A DNA stretch of 64,000 bases from Candidatus Marinacidobacterium sp. (GTDB lineage Bacteria > Acidobacteriota > Vicinamibacteria > Marinacidobacterales > Marinacidobacteraceae): positions 384,001 to 448,000 of the forward strand of contig OZ244852.1 of NCBI GenBank assembly GCA_965220965.1. The letters are read 5' to 3'. Each line of letters opens with the position of its first letter. Position 1 is the stretch's first letter. The translations under genes and the position numbers were made by a program. Shown in pieces: positions 57,783 to 64,000 of the stretch. The notes beneath the pieces were generated by a model. The model had not been told where the DNA came from, did not search any database, and was given only the letters and a program-made list of their open reading frames with translations.

Positions 57783-58733
57783 TCACCCGCGTCGCCGCGC
57801 CGCCGTATCGTAGCCGAGCGGCGCCCTTGCGGAACCGGCGATTCCCCCGTCCGCCGAAGCGAAGGCGAGCACGAGACTCATCCACAGCGCCTGCGCCACG
57901 CCGAGGTGGATGAGCTGGAGCCACCCCGGGGCGCCGAGCGCGATGTTCACCGCGCCGATGGCCGTTTCCGCGACGGTCAGCAGGAGCGCCCCGCGGGCCC
58001 ACCGATTCGCCTCGATTCGTAGCAACCAGACGAGATAGATCGCGGCGCCCACCGCGACCACCGGATGGATCACGCGCAGCCGGACGAGGAAGTGGTTCCC
58101 GGCGGAAATGTCCGCGAGCACTTCGGCGAGGAAGACCCCGCCATCGGACACCGGCTGGGGAAAGAGGGTGTCTCCGAGCGCCGTCACCGCTCCGGTCATC
58201 GCGGTCGCCACCACAACGCCCAGCCCGACCGCGAAGGCGGCGCGTCGGCGACGCGAAAAACCGACCCGTCGGAGATCGCCGGCGCGCCAGGCCGCCAGCG
58301 CCGCGCAGGCGGTCAGCGCGAGGGTGTTCGTGAGGTGGAGCGCGATGACCACGGCGCGCGCCGCCGAGTCGTCGTCGCCGGTCAGACCCCCAAGGACCAG
58401 ACCGGCGCCGATCGCCCCCTCGAACACGATGAAGAGCAGGGTGAGCCCGACGGCGGTCGTGACCGGGCCGCGTCCGTAGCGCCGCCAGGACCACAGCAGC
58501 AGGAGGATGCCCCAGAGCCCGCACAGGGCGCTGGTCACCCGGTGGGTGAACTCGATGCGGGTCGCATCGGAGGGGTCTTCGGGAAGGACGACGCCCTGGC
58601 AGGTCGGCCAGTTCGCCCCGCAGCCGTCGCCGGAGTGGGTGATGCGCACCCACGCGCCGAACAGGATGACCCCCAGCAGATAGAGCGTGAAGAGCCACGC
58701 GACGGCGGGGAACCAGGACGGCCGGGCGGACAA
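57783..58733 (-). CDS. ctaA: heme A synthase COX15/CtaA family
   Basis: GA.VR.T.SG.GC...WPTC, IEFTHR, additional His-bearing TM helices. Confidence 0.88.
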   Translation of the reverse strand: MSARPSWFPAVAWLFTLYLLGVILFGAWVRITHSGDGCGANWPTCQGVVLPEDPSDATRIEFTHRVTSALCGLWGILLLLWSWRRYGRGPVTTAVGLTLLFIVFEGAIGAGLVLGGLTGDDDSAARAVVIALHLTNTLALTACAALAAWRAGDLRRVGFSRRRRAAFAVGLGVVVATAMTGAVTALGDTLFPQPVSDGGVFLAEVLADISAGNHFLVRLRVIHPVVAVGAAIYLVWLLRIEANRWARGALLLTVAETAIGAVNIALGAPGWLQLIHLGVAQALWMSLVLAFASADGGIAGSARAPLGYDTAARRRG

Positions 58734-58792
58734 GCGCCGTCATCCTACGCGGCGCGCGGCGGGGAGCCCGTTTCGCCCCCGCTGGCCCGTGT

Positions 58793-58798
58793 TAGACT
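58793..58798 (+). promoter_or_regulatory. -10 element for tRNA-Met
   Basis: TAGACT ending 15 nt upstream of the mature tRNA 5' end. Confidence 0.5.
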
Positions 58799-58813
58799 GC
58801 GATCACCTCTGGC

Positions 58814-58891
<78 letters not shown>

Positions 58892-59010
58892 GTTGGTCGT
58901 CTCCACCGCGCCCGGGAAGGAAGGCGCGGTCGTTTGCTGGTTCCGTTCCGGTCGGGTGGTCCCGGAGTCCGGACCGTCCCGGTGAGCGTTCCGGGTCGAC
59001 GCGCGGCGTG

Positions 59011-60063
59011 ATGGCGACTTCGCGAGGGGGCCGGGGCCGCCGGCTGGACGTCGAGGGGCGCCTCGCCTCGCTGATCCCGCCCTCGCTGGCGGTTGCGGCG
59101 TTCGTTGTGGCGGTCGGGACCTCGGGTTACATGGTTCTCGAGGGCTGGTCGCTGCGCGAGTCGCTCTACATGACCGTGATCACGCTCTCGACGGTCGGGT
59201 TCGGGGAAGTCCGACCGCTTTCCGAGGGCGGCCAGATCTTCACCGTGGGCTTGATCCTGGGCGGCGTCGCCGCGCTCGGCTTCGCCCTGGTGGCGGTCGG
59301 CGAGCGGGTGGCCGACGCGCCCCGCAGGCGTCTCGAACGGAGGGTTCGCCGGATGAACGACCACGTCATCGTGTGCGGTTACGGGAGGATCGCCCGGACC
59401 GTGATTCCCGGGCTGCTCCGTCAGGGCTACCGGGTGAACGTCATCGAGCAGGCGGCGGAGCCGGCCGAGGCGGCGCGCCGCGCCGGCGTCCCGGTGCTGC
59501 GCGGGGACGCCACGGTCGAGGAGAACCTCGAGCAGGCGGGGGTCCGGCGAGCCGCGGTGGTGGCGGCGCTCCTGCCCCACGACGGCGACAACCTCTCGAT
59601 CACGATGACCGCGACCGCGCTGCGTCCGGGGATCCGGGTCGTCGCCCGCTCCGAGGAGGAGCGCTCGGTCGGGAATCTCCGGCGCGCCGGCGCCCATCCC
59701 GAGGATGTGGTTTCGCCCCACCGGACGGCGGGACAGGTCGTGCTCCGGATCCTCACGCAGGACGGCGGAACGCCGCTCACGCCGGACCTCCGGGAGGTCG
59801 CCGACGGCCATTTCGAGACCGGAACCCTGACCCTCGACGAAGACTCCCGGTGGATCGGGAAGAGCGTGGCCGAGGCGTCGATCGGCGCCGGGGCCAACGT
59901 GCTGGTGGTCGCCGTCACCGATCCGTCCGGCTCGACGCGCGTGGCGCCTCCGGGCGACCAACGGCTTCAGGCGGGGGACCGCCTGACCCTCATGGGGCGC
60001 GCCGAGGATCTCGAGACGCTGGGCGCGCGGCGCGGAAACGCCGAAGCGAAGCCCGGCGACTGA
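59011..60063 (+). CDS. MthK-like potassium channel with RCK (TrkA-N/TrkA-C) domains
   Basis: 2 TM helices, LY...IT.STVGFGE filter, HVIVCGYGR, GDAT, LEQAGV..A, C-terminal TrkA-C. Confidence 0.92.
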   Translation: MATSRGGRGRRLDVEGRLASLIPPSLAVAAFVVAVGTSGYMVLEGWSLRESLYMTVITLSTVGFGEVRPLSEGGQIFTVGLILGGVAALGFALVAVGERVADAPRRRLERRVRRMNDHVIVCGYGRIARTVIPGLLRQGYRVNVIEQAAEPAEAARRAGVPVLRGDATVEENLEQAGVRRAAVVAALLPHDGDNLSITMTATALRPGIRVVARSEEERSVGNLRRAGAHPEDVVSPHRTAGQVVLRILTQDGGTPLTPDLREVADGHFETGTLTLDEDSRWIGKSVAEASIGAGANVLVVAVTDPSGSTRVAPPGDQRLQAGDRLTLMGRAEDLETLGARRGNAEAKPGD

Positions 60064-60090
60064 ACGGCCAAGCGGCGGCCCGTCCCCGGG

Positions 60091-60162
60091 AGCCGGCGAG
60101 TGGATTTGAACCACCGACCTGCTGATTACGAATCAGCTGCTCTGCCCCTGAGCTACACCGGC
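60091..60162 (-). tRNA. tRNA-Thr (CGT)
   Basis: Reverse complement GCCGGTGTAGCTCAG...CTGAT-TCGTA-ATCAG...GGTTCAAATCC...CGCCGGCT; CCA is not encoded. Confidence 0.95.
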
Positions 60163-60337
60163 AACCCGTGAGAACCGAACGGTCCGCGTCGCGCCAGCCA
60201 GATGCCCAGTCGAAGCGTTCTGGCGGGCGTCAACGGGACCGCCCCTGATCCCGTGGCGACCCTCCGCCATTCTATTGTGTCCACTGGCAGCCCGCGCCCC
60301 GAACCCTGGCGAGATCTCCGGGGAGACCGTCGCCGGG

Positions 60338-60343
60338 TAGAAT
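60338..60343 (+). promoter_or_regulatory. candidate -10 element for the leader-peptide/TonB receptor operon
   Basis: TAGAAT about 100 nt upstream of the uORF start. Confidence 0.4.
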
Positions 60344-60446
60344 CGGAAGCGCGCAGCCCGGTCTCCAGATCGCTTGGCTGGCAGTCCGGCCTCCGTCGCC
60401 GGCTCTGTGATCCAGCGACGAGAGCGATGAGACCCGCAACCGGAAG

Positions 60447-60770
60447 ATGACGAAACCCGCCACGAGGCCTGGCTGGCTTCGGGCGTGGTCCCCTGCTGGC
60501 GGGCCGTCGCCTCTTGCAGCGGCGCTGGCGGCTTGTGTTCTGCTCGCGACCGGATGCCTCGCCGTCTCTCACGGTCATGACGAAGAACCGGGCGGTGGGA
60601 GCAGTCAGGACTGCGTAACGTGCGCCCTCGGGCATCACACGCTCGCAGGTTCGACCGGCGCCGCGCTCCCCGGTCCGAACGCCACGGCCGTCGCGGTCTC
60701 CGAGGACGGCGGGCCGGCGCGCCCTGACGCCCGGCTGGCGGTCCATGCCGCCCGCGGCCCCCCCGCGTAA
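60447..60770 (+). CDS. DUF2946/CruR-like leader peptide: hydrophobic segment, HxH, CxxC, HH, C-terminal RGPP
   Basis: ...LAAALAACVLLATGCLAVSHGH...DCVTCALGHH...HAARGPPA*, directly upstream of a TonB receptor. Confidence 0.8.
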   Translation: MTKPATRPGWLRAWSPAGGPSPLAAALAACVLLATGCLAVSHGHDEEPGGGSSQDCVTCALGHHTLAGSTGAALPGPNATAVAVSEDGGPARPDARLAVHAARGPPA

Positions 60771-60893
60771 CAACCCCCCAAACGCCATCGGCGCCACCGC
60801 TCCGTCAGCGGGGCGGACCGCGCGCCGTCCCGTCGCGTGCGTCGGGAGTTTTCCGGTCGCCGGAATTCGGCGGCCGTCGGGAGGTTTTGTTCC

Positions 60894-63338
60894 GTGTCTG
60901 TCTGTCGTTCCCTTCTACCTGCGGTCCTCGTTCTGAGCGCCGCCACAGCCCTGAGTCCGAGTCTCGCCCGCGGGACGCCACAGGAGGGCTCCATCCATGG
61001 AACTGTCGTGGCCGCCGAGAGCGGAGCGCCGGTTCCGTCCGCGCTCGTCTTTCTCGACGGTACGACCCTCTCGGCCATCACCGCCGCCGATGGATCGTTC
61101 GTCATCGACGCTGCGCCGTCCGGCGAACATCTGCTGATCGTCCGGGAAGCGGCGTTCCGGGAGCTGGCGTGGCCGGTCACCGTGGTCGCCGGCCAGCCAG
61201 TGAGACTCGACCTGAGTCTCAGCATCCTGCAGTTCGAAGAGAGCGTCGTGGTGACCGCGACGCAGACGGAACGGGCGGTGACCGAGGTGGCGGCCAGCGT
61301 CACGATTCTCGACGCGGACGCGATCGCCGCTTCGTCGGCGCGCAATCTCCAGGATCTGCTTCGGCAGACGCCGGCGCTCGATCTGGCGGAGACCTCGGGA
61401 ATGGCCGCCCGCGCCAACTCGTCGCTCATCATGCGCGGGGTCCCGGGCACGAAGCGGGCGCTGTTCCTGGTCGACGGGATGCCTGCCAACGATCTGGGCC
61501 ACGGAAGTCTCGCCGGGCTGAGCCTCGTTCCGGTCGAATCGGTCGAGCGCGCCGAGGTGGTCCGCGGCCCCTTTTCGAGTCTCTACGGGGCGAACGCCTT
61601 TTCCGGCGCCATCAACGTCATCACCCGACCTGGCGAAGGGCCTCCAGCCGCCGACTTCTTCGCCAGCGGCGGCTCGGCCGGCTACTACCAGTTCGGCGCT
61701 TCGGTGCGTGGCGCATCGGGACCTGTCGCCTACACCTTCACTGCGGATCGCCGCCAGATCGACAACGTCTACAACCGCGACACCCGCATGGTTCCGGTGA
61801 TCGGCGAGGACGGCGGCATTCTGCAGCGGGAGGTCCCGCTTACGAATGTCGGGTACGAGGACACCCGGCTCAACGGTCGGCTCGACATCGACATGTCGGA
61901 CGCGTGGCGGCTGACCCTGCTGCCGAGGATCACCCGCTACGAGACGGGGCTCGATCTGTCGTCACGACTGCCGGCGCCGGTCGAGGAATCCAAGCAGGAC
62001 ACCGCCTTCAACCTCGGCGGCGTCCTCAGCTATGGCGGGGAGGGGGCGCTTACGGCCCGGCTGCGGGCGAGCTACCGCTACTCGACGCAGAGCCTCTTCC
62101 AGGAGAACTTCACGCTTGCCCCGACGCGCCAGACGATCATCGTGGATCCACCGGGTCCCGCCATCAGTGAGTCGGTGACCCGAGGCGTGTTCCCCTTTGC
62201 GGCGCTCACCGGGCAGGAAACCGATTTCTTCACTCTCCTCCTCGAGCCGCAGTTCACGTGGACGCCGAACGCCGACCACACGGTCGTTTTCGGCGCCAGC
62301 TATACCCGCGACCATGGCGCTTTCGGCGAGAGCAGGATCGCGGACGCCTCGAATCTGGTCGGCTCGGACGCCACTCTCGCCGGGATCGCCCGGGGCATCC
62401 AGGCGGGCATGGCGGCGGGCGGAGCGCCCAACCCGAGCGTCACGTTTGTGCGCGACCCGGCCATTGGCGAGATCTTTCCCCTCTCGGACGGGCAGGAGGA
62501 GCAGTTCGACATCTTCTCGGCCTACGTTCAGGACGAGTGGGTCGTGGCCGACCGGCTGCGGTTCGTCCCGGGCCTTCGCTTCGACCACCACGCTTCCTTC
62601 GGGTCCGTCGCTTCTCCCAAGGTGGCGCTGCTGTACTCGCTGGCGCCGACCACGCGGGTGCGCAGCTCCGTCGGGCGCGCCTTTCGGGCTCCGAGTCTCT
62701 TCGAACTGTTCGGCAACGTGGTCTTCCACGGGCCCATTCCCGGCCTGCCGAACGCCGATCTGAAGCCCGAGTACATCAGTTCGTTCGACGCCGGGATCCA
62801 GCACGAGGTCAGCCGCGCCTTGCGGGCCGAAGTGAACGTCTTCTACAACGACATGACGGACCTCATCCAGCTCGTCATTTCGCCGGAGCGCGACCACTTC
62901 GACTGGGTCAACGTGGCCGAGGCGCGCTCCACCGGTCTCGAACTGGTGGCGAATGGTGACGCCGCGTCGTGGTTGGGCTACTACGCCAACTACGCGTACA
63001 CCGACAGCGAGGATCGGGCCACCGGCAACGCGCTGGCCCTCGTGCCGCGTCACAAGGCCAACGCCGGACTCCGGTTGCGGGGCGACGTCGGGTCATGGCG
63101 TTTCACCGGTTCCCTCGACCAGCGCTGGGTTGGCGCGCGAACGCAGAGCTCGCAGGGCGTTCCGGTGGGTCTTGACGCCTACGGACGCACTGATCTCGCC
63201 GTCTACCTGCACCCCACCAGTCGCCTCCGCCTCGGGCTGCAGGTGCTCAACCTCATGAACGCCGACTACCAGGAGACGGCCGCCAGTCCCACGCTCGGCC
63301 GGCTGATCTCGGTAGGCCTGACGGTCACTCCGTTCTAG
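60894..63338 (+). CDS. TonB-dependent receptor (heme/cobalamin-like class)
   Basis: GGAGG RBS plus GTG, signal peptide, ESVVVTAT TonB box, EVVRGPFSSLYG.NA..G.IN.IT plug, FRAP..H..NADLKPE, terminal F. Confidence 0.93.
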   Translation: MSVCRSLLPAVLVLSAATALSPSLARGTPQEGSIHGTVVAAESGAPVPSALVFLDGTTLSAITAADGSFVIDAAPSGEHLLIVREAAFRELAWPVTVVAGQPVRLDLSLSILQFEESVVVTATQTERAVTEVAASVTILDADAIAASSARNLQDLLRQTPALDLAETSGMAARANSSLIMRGVPGTKRALFLVDGMPANDLGHGSLAGLSLVPVESVERAEVVRGPFSSLYGANAFSGAINVITRPGEGPPAADFFASGGSAGYYQFGASVRGASGPVAYTFTADRRQIDNVYNRDTRMVPVIGEDGGILQREVPLTNVGYEDTRLNGRLDIDMSDAWRLTLLPRITRYETGLDLSSRLPAPVEESKQDTAFNLGGVLSYGGEGALTARLRASYRYSTQSLFQENFTLAPTRQTIIVDPPGPAISESVTRGVFPFAALTGQETDFFTLLLEPQFTWTPNADHTVVFGASYTRDHGAFGESRIADASNLVGSDATLAGIARGIQAGMAAGGAPNPSVTFVRDPAIGEIFPLSDGQEEQFDIFSAYVQDEWVVADRLRFVPGLRFDHHASFGSVASPKVALLYSLAPTTRVRSSVGRAFRAPSLFELFGNVVFHGPIPGLPNADLKPEYISSFDAGIQHEVSRALRAEVNVFYNDMTDLIQLVISPERDHFDWVNVAEARSTGLELVANGDAASWLGYYANYAYTDSEDRATGNALALVPRHKANAGLRLRGDVGSWRFTGSLDQRWVGARTQSSQGVPVGLDAYGRTDLAVYLHPTSRLRLGLQVLNLMNADYQETAASPTLGRLISVGLTVTPF

Positions 63339-63351
63339 AGGAGGGTCCCCC

Positions 63352-64000
63352 ATGAAGAACAGCAGCAAACCGGCCCCACGCGGGCCGGTCCGGGCGTTCG
63401 TCGCCGGGCTCTGGTCCCGGCGGCGACGGATTGCGGCCGCCACGCTCGCGGTGGCCACGCTCTGGATCGGGTTCTCGCAGTATGAGCGTCACCTTGCGGT
63501 GACGCGGGTGGCGTTCGTGAATTTTCCGGGCTTCCAGCTTGCCCGCATCGAGCGCGCGCGCCAGAGCGACGCGGTCCGGATCGAGTCGCTGGACCTCGCG
63601 GCGCTCGACCGGGCGGCCGACTACCCGGTCGTCTTTGTGTTCGGGCGCGGCCTGCAGCTCGACGAGACGCAGCTCGGCCACCTCCGCGAAGCGGGCCGCC
63701 GCGGGGCGCGGCTCTTCGTGCAGGGCGCCACGAACCCTGCGCTCGATGTCACGAACCTGCGCGGTCCGCAGCTCGACGCCACCAACGCATACCTCGAGTT
63801 CGGAGGGGCGGAGAACTACGCCCGGCTCCTCAACTTCTCGCGAGTCGAACTCGACGGCAAGACGCTTCGGTCGGATCCGGTGCAGCCTCCCGTCGAACTC
63901 TCGATGGATGTGCTGTTTCATCTGGATGATGACCTGACGTTCGAGACCGTCGATGCGTTCGACGCCTGGTACGCGGGCGAGGGCCTCGTGAAGAGCGCAA
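63352..64000 (+). CDS. CobN/HmuS-like chelatase large subunit with N-terminal membrane anchor; truncated by the window end
   Basis: Not in the ORF track; read manually. GAGGAGG RBS, ATG at 63352, TM helix, TRVAFVNF...Q, Y...GG.ENY.RLL, FH.D....F.....F..WY, resembling the N-termini of Bacteroidota HmuS/CobN proteins. Confidence 0.75.
   Translation, partial: MKNSSKPAPRGPVRAFVAGLWSRRRRIAAATLAVATLWIGFSQYERHLAVTRVAFVNFPGFQLARIERARQSDAVRIESLDLAALDRAADYPVVFVFGRGLQLDETQLGHLREAGRRGARLFVQGATNPALDVTNLRGPQLDATNAYLEFGGAENYARLLNFSRVELDGKTLRSDPVQPPVELSMDVLFHLDDDLTFETVDAFDAWYAGEGLVKSA

Follow-up and report, generated by a model that had tools for sequence, protein, structure and literature searches.

A conserved, probable arrest-type leader peptide precedes an hmu-like operon in Candidatus Marinacidobacterium

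Introduction

What is the role of a short open reading frame (ORF) that carries paired His and Cys residues, ends in Arg-Gly-Pro-Pro-Ala and lies directly upstream of genes for a TonB-dependent receptor and a CobN/HmuS-like chelatase? The question is raised by a 64,000-nucleotide (nt) stretch of Candidatus Marinacidobacterium sp. (Acidobacteriota, Vicinamibacteria; assembly GCA_965220965.1, contig OZ244852.1, positions 384,001 to 448,000), hereafter the window, in which this ORF is found close to the 3′ end. Judged by its sequence and conservation, it is a genuine, conserved arrest-type leader. We consider it likely that the leader is a translated, cis-acting upstream ORF (uORF) of the CruR/CutF (DUF2946-like) class, whose metal-responsive stalling would keep the downstream operon on.

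The class itself is known already, from CruR (2022), CutF (2021-2025) and a survey of 2025 (PMC12992588). CruR (Bp2923) of Bordetella pertussis is the prototype of DUF2946; it needs CXXC and RAPP and acts through Rho, whose loading site maps to a C-rich, G-poor region (PMC9426467), and toeprinting places its arrest with Pro-Pro in the P and A sites (PMC12992588). Among arrest motifs of this kind the strongest are RAPP and RGPP, and RGPP is reported to arrest like RAPP. Small RAPP/RGPP proteins with localisation signals are enriched upstream of TonB receptors in many phyla, with 5450 RAPP cases before 'TonB-dependent receptor' in the survey's table (PMC12992588). CutF opens a stem-loop over the ribosome-binding site of the next gene (PMC9973294). 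In the hmu operon of Bacteroides, HmuS removes iron from heme and HmuU/V energise the import (PMC12583661).

An earlier sequence-only reading of the locus had set its novelty high. This was overrated, given that RAPP/RGPP uORFs before TonB receptors have already been published across phyla (PMC12992588). The new element is the hmu/CobN-type target operon, together with the multi-copy use of such leaders in this lineage, and is of moderate interest. Literature searches found no published leader of this class ahead of an hmu/CobN-type operon and no paper joining 'arrest peptide' and 'CobN', and the papers listed for 'RAPP' with 'HmuS' were unrelated. The searchable supplements of PMC12992588 and of the CruR paper hold no CobN or chelatase entry, nor do those of the CruR paper hold one for Acidobacteria, RGPP or MotA; some supplement tables, including CutF's, could still list one.

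Results and Discussion

Sequence and motifs of the leader

After a basic N-terminus the ORF reads H42-G-H44 (codons CAC GGT CAT at 60570-60578), C56-V-T-C59 (TGC at 60612 and 60621) and H63-H64, followed by a 38-residue Ala/Gly/Pro-rich stretch and R103-G-P-P-A107 before the stop (CGC GGC CCC CCC GCG TAA at 60753-60770). The second Cys, C59, lies 43 residues from R103. The sequence-only reading had described a 107-amino-acid (aa) ORF at 60447-60770 with all of these motifs, which the ORF list and the codons confirm (Table 1), and had placed it 123 nt from a TonB receptor, a distance that holds for a receptor start at GTG 60894. The signal or transmembrane segment that it had proposed is recovered as a predicted helix over residues 22-40 in an AlphaFold2 model built on the family alignment. 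This is the sole confident helix (block predicted local distance difference test, pLDDT, 85-91). The model as a whole, with a mean pLDDT of 71.8 and a predicted template modelling score (pTM) of 0.34, is informative for helix and disorder only; it adds a short second helix at 57-64 and leaves residues 65-107 without secondary structure.

A tRNA-Thr gene on the strand opposite to the leader (60089-60162) bounds the unit upstream and therefore the leader is its first gene. An Rfam scan of 59900-61200 (E<=1) returned tRNA only and no riboswitch, and no NCBIfam family matches the leader. A lipoprotein reading of L-A-T-G-C37 was ruled out because this Cys is not conserved in the orthologues. The R-G-P-P-A codons at 60753-60767 (CGCGG CCCCC CCGCG) form a perfect 5-bp palindrome exactly at the expected stall site, drawn as a hairpin by RNAalifold in 12/12 orthologues, and this palindrome is probably a by-product of the codons.

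Table 1. Features of the leader, its spacer and the downstream genes (window coordinates), with the multi-leader islands of related loci (locus coordinates).
Feature	Position	Strand	Remarks
Leader ORF (uORF)	60447..60770	+	ATG, 107 codons plus TAA; from ORF list, codons read; conserved family
Hydrophobic export signal/membrane anchor, residues 22-40	60510..60566	+	AlphaFold2 helix, block pLDDT 85-91
H42-x-H44, probable metal ligands	60570..60578	+	At least 90% conserved over 144 sequences
C56-x-x-C59	60612..60623	+	Invariant in 28 motif-selected and 144 profile-search sequences
H63-H64	60633..60638	+	H63 is the family CxxC-x-x-x-H position; His in 98/140 representatives
Spacer, residues 65-102	60639..60752	+	Unstructured, variable in sequence, fixed in length
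R103-G-P-P arrest motif	60753..60764	+	R, P, P invariant; stall expected with Pro105 in P site and Pro106 in A site, by analogy with CruR
C-rich, G-poor stretch, possible Rho loading site	60723..60836	+	C/G 1.8-2.05 in 78-nt windows; by analogy with cruR
Predicted anti-Shine-Dalgarno strand	60770..60779	+	Last stop-codon base plus CAACCCCCC; pairs with 60879-60891 in minimum-energy fold
Intergenic spacer, 123 nt	60771..60893	+	Internal hairpins
Receptor Shine-Dalgarno GGGAGG	60879..60884	+	9 nt upstream of GTG 60894
TonB-dependent receptor, 814 aa	60894..63338	+	hmuR-like position; CarboxypepD_reg, Plug and barrel domains
CobN/HmuS-like gene, start	63352..64000	+	1597 aa, runs beyond the window; genome position given for the hmu-like operon from this gene on, G000:C1:447352-453810
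Multi-leader islands	L034 800-16900; L036 880-16500; L031 3950-17400; L043 1870-17700		

Control against chance reading frames

The region has a G+C content of about 70% and open frames are abundant in it, and therefore a control for chance frames was needed. The supposition that the leader is such a frame, with the operon under a conventional promoter and repressor, can draw on the many overlapping open frames of this region, on a leader G+C of just 0.76 at third codon positions and on a word-index search that gave no homologue. An R[AG]PP end followed by 0-4 residues is found in 103 of the 30,563 stop-to-stop frames that reach 50 aa in the genome (3.25 Mb). CxxC stands 38-50 residues upstream of the motif in five of these 103, against 0.74 expected from the six-frame CxxC frequency. 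A hydrophobic N-terminal segment is present in all five, and a His-x-His-type motif stands ahead of CxxC in four, the fifth (C1:1397428-1397793) having extra Cys residues in its place. The genes that follow encode a TonB receptor in three cases, an ABC-2 transporter in one and a 390-aa protein without Pfam match in one; Plug-domain genes number 18 in the genome. Moreover, frame, length and end point are kept in 14/14 orthologous units at 25-45% protein identity, a profile of the family has 1192 matches in public protein sets, and one leader lies in a Cyclobacterium locus of 40% G+C. As far as computation goes, conservation has thus already refuted a chance origin, to which we attach next to no probability.

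One of the paralogous leaders, outside the window (G000:C1:2758501-2758779; locus L113 2505-6554), ends in ...ARGPPIRA and heads genes for an ATP-binding cassette (ABC) ATPase and two ABC-2/DUF3526 permeases. This gene set resembles the Zur-regulated znuGHI of Caulobacter (PMC4176598).

Conservation at orthologous loci

We compared seven loci from genomes of the class with a CobN-like gene and fourteen Vicinamibacteria loci from a scan of one genome per species; L042, L045 and L047 duplicate L035, L031 and L032, and each was counted once. All of the other receptor-CobN units in the Vicinamibacteria loci (14/14) have a CxxC...R[AG]PP ORF just upstream, although these ORFs were found by the motif itself, whose presence is therefore the result and not an independent property, and the loci are relatives, so that the counts are not independent. 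The ORFs lie on the same strand as the receptor, keep a gap of 42-45 residues between CxxC and R[AG]PP, and stop about 130-400 nt short of the point where the receptor match begins. The order leader, receptor, cobN, for which the sequence-only reading had proposed a search in related genomes, is thus found there together with both motifs. Where a CobN gene has no receptor in front of it, a leader of the window type stands directly upstream in five of six cases, and the sixth gene comes after a beta-propeller gene with its own leader. The fragments L041 and L046 are without upstream sequence, as are the first CobN copies of L048-L050.

Leaders of the window subtype (MTKP..., SHGHDD, C-x-x-C-C, HH, ...TRGPPA) head 11 or 12 of the 14 units, the borderline case being L039, whose His motif reads GHVEGH; other subtypes occur in L033 and L035, ending in RAPPS and RAPPA. 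A tblastn search with the window peptide alone recovered two of the orthologous leaders at 43% identity. Beyond the Acidobacteriota, one of the 62 other loci (Bacteroidota, Proteobacteria and others) has such an ORF. In this Cyclobacterium locus (L051 1383-11686, 40% G+C) a 103-aa ORF with HSH, CSLC, a 43-residue gap and RGPPVIS-stop is followed by genes for a CobW-type GTPase, a TonB receptor, a HmuY-domain protein and a CobN-like protein.

Related Vicinamibacterales carry four to six paralogous CxxC...R[AG]PPA leaders within about 15 kb (Table 1), and each of these leaders stands at the head of a separate unit. The units comprise an ABC transporter, a divergent TonB receptor, a 316-aa SGL/NHL beta-propeller protein, a CobN-like gene, and a receptor with a second CobN-like gene. 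Tandem leaders of different subtypes precede a single receptor gene, on one strand, in L030 (14883-15589, minus strand), L040 (3274-4365) and L039 (3-1988), their frames abutting in L039 and L040. CobN-like frames are split between frames or into pieces in L034 (6541-11324), L036 (6467-11157) and L039 (4806-8728), which may be due to frameshifts, pseudogenes or assembly errors.

A wider family related to DUF2946

A profile of 28 leaders (alignment A1), themselves selected by the motif, was searched against 1.84 billion cluster representatives and matched 1192 of them, nearly all of some 90-100 residues, at E<=0.001; 43 matches reached E<=1e-10. Among the best 150 of these 1192, the majority are 85-120 residues long and aligned to their very last residue. 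RAPP endings account for 93 of the best 150 and RGPP endings for 48, with 9 having neither, and in 89 the motif is followed by exactly one residue. Among the 141 of these 150 that bear the motif, CxxC and Arg are separated by 44 residues in 99 cases and by 43 in 24; in the 28 relatives this gap spans 41-44 residues. Over 144 aligned sequences (A2), C56, C59, R103, P105 and P106 are invariant and H42/H44 are conserved in at least 90%, figures that overstate independence since a profile favours its own invariant columns. The position of H63 (CxxC+4) is His in 98/140 representatives, an uncharged 14-mer stands ahead of CxxC in 134/140, and the 12 residues before the Arg are variable, except for Pro at -2 in 67/140. 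The aligned sequences give a clear pattern, a spacer of fixed length and free sequence between two rigid motifs. The sequence-only reading had held that the spacer would put the metal site just outside the exit tunnel, and the lengths agree with this: 43 residues here, 43-44 in most of the family and 45 as published for CruR (PMC9426467).

DUF2946 (PF11162) is the sole recurrent Pfam family, matched by 17/28 leaders at E<=1 and by 47/144 at E<=0.01 (best 7.1e-07), and the matches always extend to the last profile position. By sequence comparison the leader family is a diverged branch of DUF2946/CruR, of which the window ORF is no member by Pfam's own rule; it does appear to fit by the features that Roy et al. 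use for the DUF2946/CruR family. The DUF2946 search that the sequence-only reading had proposed thus speaks in its favour through the relatives, although the window ORF itself scores 11.9 bits against a gathering cut-off of 23.7. Because scores lie mostly under this threshold, surveys with the Pfam model would largely miss the family.

The downstream operon

The operon comprises, in order, genes for the receptor, the 1597-aa CobN-like protein, a 226-aa membrane protein without family, a MotA/ExbB-like protein and a DUF2149 protein. The receptor most likely starts at GTG 60894, which by alignment matches the orthologue ATG in L030 (GGGAGGAAGTGTTCC-ATG there and GGGAGGTTTTGTTCC-GTG here), whereas the longest frame in the ORF list opens at GTG 60837. 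The CobN family score is 20 bits for the fragment in the window and 981.8 bits for the whole protein and, with Plug and TonB barrel domains in the receptor, the earlier assignment of a TonB receptor and a CobN/HmuS-like chelatase is upheld. Its further description of the receptor as of heme/corrinoid type rests on sub-threshold NCBIfam scores and on the hmu-like gene order. The receptor itself is not diagnostic, and its best NCBIfam families, TonB-hemin (192.6 bits, cut-off 316.85) and TonB-B12 (181.8 bits), are far below their thresholds. The closest solved structures are CirA, BtuB and FepA. NCBIfam has no family for the 226-aa, MotA-like or DUF2149 proteins.

In the scan of one genome per species, the nearest relatives of the CobN-like protein are from Vicinamibacteria/Vicinamibacterales (70-86% identity), in keeping with the earlier guess of a probable acidobacterium, and the next are from Bacteroidota and others (40-59%). 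The gene is patchy, occurring in 11/151 genomes of the class, and was not found in the two genomes of the same genus. The protein shares more identity with a different family of this class (81%) than with genomes of its own family (70-78%), which suggests that the hmu-like operon was acquired by lateral transfer.

The operon adjoins the tRNA-Thr gene. Further upstream, a COX15/CtaA heme A synthase gene (57783-58733, minus strand) lies 1.7 kb from the leader, and a tRNA-Met gene (58814-58891, plus strand) falls inside the listed long frame 58687-60063, so that the TrkA-type potassium channel gene of this frame (Ion_trans_2, TrkA_N, TrkA_C) must start downstream of the listed GTG.

Possible read-outs in the RNA

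In the minimum-energy fold of 60730-60920, positions 60764-60779 pair with 60879-60896 over 14 bp with small interruptions, setting the Ala codon, the stop codon and CAACCCCCC against GGGAGG, its spacer and the GTG. The Shine-Dalgarno sequence would thereby be closed in the free RNA, with a P(unpaired) of at most 0.01 at 5/6 bases. Unconstrained RNAalifold runs on 5, then 12, orthologous spacers predict the same long-range helix, formed by the stop codon plus CACCUCC with GGAGGUG and closing a multi-branch loop. Across the orthologous spacers the helix has 97.6% of its cells paired, and sliding the partner lowers this to 45-62%, in a comparison made on the same sequences from which the helix was derived.

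The first 60 nt of the spacer are rich in C (0.50, with G at 0.28), all 12 orthologous spacers have more C than G in their first 40 nt, and a rho gene is present in the genome. A terminator scan found two weak terminator-like hairpins, one of them at 60866-60881; it was rejected as an intrinsic terminator because the orthologues do not keep the U-tract. A translational read-out through the helix and a transcriptional one through Rho are both possible and do not exclude each other.

Proposed mechanism and alternatives

What is observed above is the ORF itself with its conservation and family ties, the constant spacing, the make-up of the operon and the capacity of the RNA to pair; stalling and metal sensing we infer by homology, and the direction of control by analogy with the published systems. 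The N-terminal hydrophobic helix would target the nascent chain to the membrane, and the His/Cys site (H42, H44, C56, C59, H63) would bind a metal ion. Arrest of the ribosome on R103-G-P-P would leave Pro105 in the P site and Pro106 in the A site. The metal site would then be 46-63 residues from the peptidyl-transferase centre (C59 46, H42 63), which would put the Cys pair just beyond the exit tunnel, and the signal helix would be fully exposed. Stalled at 60759-60764, the ribosome would shield the stop codon together with the bases that directly follow it, and so the 5′ strand of the helix. Once uncovered, those bases could pair with the receptor Shine-Dalgarno sequence and start codon 110 nt downstream, and the same C-rich stretch could load Rho. 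As long as the stall lasts, the receptor, the HmuS-like CobN protein and the HmuT/U/V-like proteins would be translated and transcribed. Release of the stall, brought about by the metal state of the nascent chain, would let the ribosome terminate two codons later; the helix would close and/or Rho would terminate, and the uptake operon would be off. Because the target is an importer, we expect the polarity of CruR, in which the stall means on and metal-induced release means off.

The leader could instead be a small exported metal- or heme-binding protein that acts in trans, serving the receptor as a periplasmic chaperone or hemophore-like partner, its Pro-Pro tail being non-regulatory. An export helix and conserved His/Cys ligands would suit such a protein, as would a location at the hmuY position of hmuYRSTUV in Bacteroidota (PMC12583661); moreover, CxxCH, the heme c attachment motif, occurs in 59/140 family representatives, though not in the window ORF. 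However, the invariant positions cluster in R-x-P-P, a single residue ahead of the stop, and a spacer fixed in length and free in sequence marks an arrest peptide rather than a folded domain. AlphaFold2 predicts two helices and no further structure, and neither CruR nor CutF was detected as a stable protein (PMC9426467, PMC9973294). We therefore regard a trans-acting protein as improbable. Arrest could also serve another end. A SecM/ApdP-type secretion monitor would be freed from its stall by the pull that membrane insertion exerts, which would tie receptor synthesis to Sec/signal recognition particle (SRP) capacity, and the combination of an N-terminal hydrophobic helix with RGPP is indeed that of ApdA/ApdP-class peptides (PMC12992588, PMC10987492). 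This we hold to be very improbable, given that the downstream genes (receptor, CobN-like, MotA-like, DUF2149) are not sec or yidC, that the His/Cys positions are as conserved as the arrest motif and would be unneeded by a pure secretion monitor, and that the relation to DUF2946 points to metal homeostasis.

Several results weigh against a metal-responsive leader of the CruR/CutF class, besides the motif-based selection of loci and of A1, the relatedness of the loci and the circularity of the helix comparison given above. The single leader ORF found no homologue in a word-index search, and a single-sequence six-frame search of 61 related genomes gave weak matches only (E>=0.001), which were interpretable only after the motif scan. 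The 11.9 bits of the window ORF on DUF2946 correspond to an E of 0.4, with residues 39-106 aligned on profile positions 47-117 of 117, and relatives scored singly reach 12-22 bits on the same positions, all below 23.7. The leader's own Shine-Dalgarno sequence is poor, GGAAG directly abutting the ATG, and a promoter scan upstream of it found no sigma-70-like site. As for the helix, covariation is weak, with two pairs changed on both sides and 57/500 shuffles reaching the observed score, and the spacer folds no better than shuffles (z -1.03). In a duplex-energy test on 24 leader/gene pairs of all subtypes, the window after the stop was not the best partner of the ribosome-binding site, with a median rank fraction of 0.34 and a place in the top tenth in 4/24 pairs, which is not significant. 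Moreover, when the ribosome footprint is masked, the GGAG of the Shine-Dalgarno sequence can refold into a weak local hairpin of 4 bp.

Which metal would a leader of the CruR/CutF class sense here? Homology points to copper and the cargo points to iron or heme. A candidate clue is that the Cyclobacterium leader operon begins with a gene for a CobW-type GTPase, a family linked to zinc and cobalt. The paralogue before the ABC-2/DUF3526 permeases recalls the Zur-controlled znuGHI of Caulobacter (PMC4176598). We place copper first, as a plausible candidate short of an even chance, followed by iron or heme-iron as a tentative one and zinc as a weaker one still; cobalt or nickel is unlikely, and so, to the same degree, is another metal or none. 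Taken as a claim of its own, that the leader senses iron, heme-derived iron or another divalent metal and not copper seems to us rather doubtful. If it were true, this would be the first arrest-peptide sensor shown to control an uptake operon of the HmuS-type heme de-chelatase, and hmu genes outside Bacteroidota would gain their first known regulator. The class would then be a general metal-sensing device with its specificity set by a few His/Cys positions. The five paralogous leaders before different transporters would allow specificity to be compared within one organism. In related Vicinamibacterales a whole nutrient-acquisition island, with two HmuS units, a second receptor, the beta-propeller protein and the ABC-2 transporter, would be under the joint control of nascent-chain sensors, with no transcription factor dedicated to it.

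Comparison with known systems

The leader would extend the nascent-chain metal sensing of CruR and CutF to Acidobacteriota and to an operon of the HmuS type, a family that takes iron out of heme in gut Bacteroides. The operon resembles hmuYRSTUV of Bacteroidota (PMC12583661) in its order of receptor, CobN-like HmuS, membrane protein HmuT, MotA/ExbB-like HmuU and DUF2149 HmuV. Locus L090 of Bacteroides thetaiotaomicron again shows receptor, CobN-like gene, gap, MotA-like gene and DUF2149 gene in succession, with identities of 39-51% for the CobN-like, 48% for the HmuU-like and 61% for the HmuV-like protein, and just 22-28% for the receptor. It differs in having no HmuY gene, the leader ORF standing alone between the tRNA gene and the receptor; among the loci examined, a HmuY domain was seen only in Cyclobacterium L051. 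Moreover, the host is presumably of an aerobic soil lineage, and the HmuS-like protein is here a putative heme de-chelatase.

Among arrest peptides, those of the RAPP/RGPP survey (PMC12992588) resemble the window leader in having RGPP at the C-terminus, carrying a localisation signal and preceding a TonB receptor gene; the survey does not discuss single operons of this type. Unlike the Sec/YidC monitors of the ApdA/ApdP class, the window leader does not precede sec or yidC genes. CutF of the Rhodobacter capsulatus cutFOG operon (PMC9973294, bioRxiv 10.1101/2025.02.05.636593) is likewise a small exported, DUF2946-like leader, and its stall is proposed to open an RNA structure shielding the ribosome-binding site of the next gene; the corresponding helix here is a predicted one. 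CutF has CxxxC, another form of Pro-rich tail and a short spacer, whereas the window leader has CxxC. Copper induces the CutF stall, which turns on a detoxifying multicopper oxidase, while here a TonB receptor lies downstream; with an importer as target, a polarity opposite to that of CutF is therefore expected.

CruR is set apart by RAPP in place of RGPP, by three residues after the motif in place of one, and by a cargo of a copper transporter plus a PepSY protein, where the window has hmuRSTUV-like genes in an acidobacterial host. The window family has an additional, near-invariant HxH, the window ORF stays below the Pfam DUF2946 threshold, and the predicted anti-Shine-Dalgarno helix lies outside the CruR model. 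Yet each opens an operon and is separated by a long spacer from a TonB-dependent transporter gene, and each combines an export signal, CxxC, a fixed spacer (45 residues in CruR, 43 here) and R-x-P-P near the stop with a leader end that is rich in C and poor in G.

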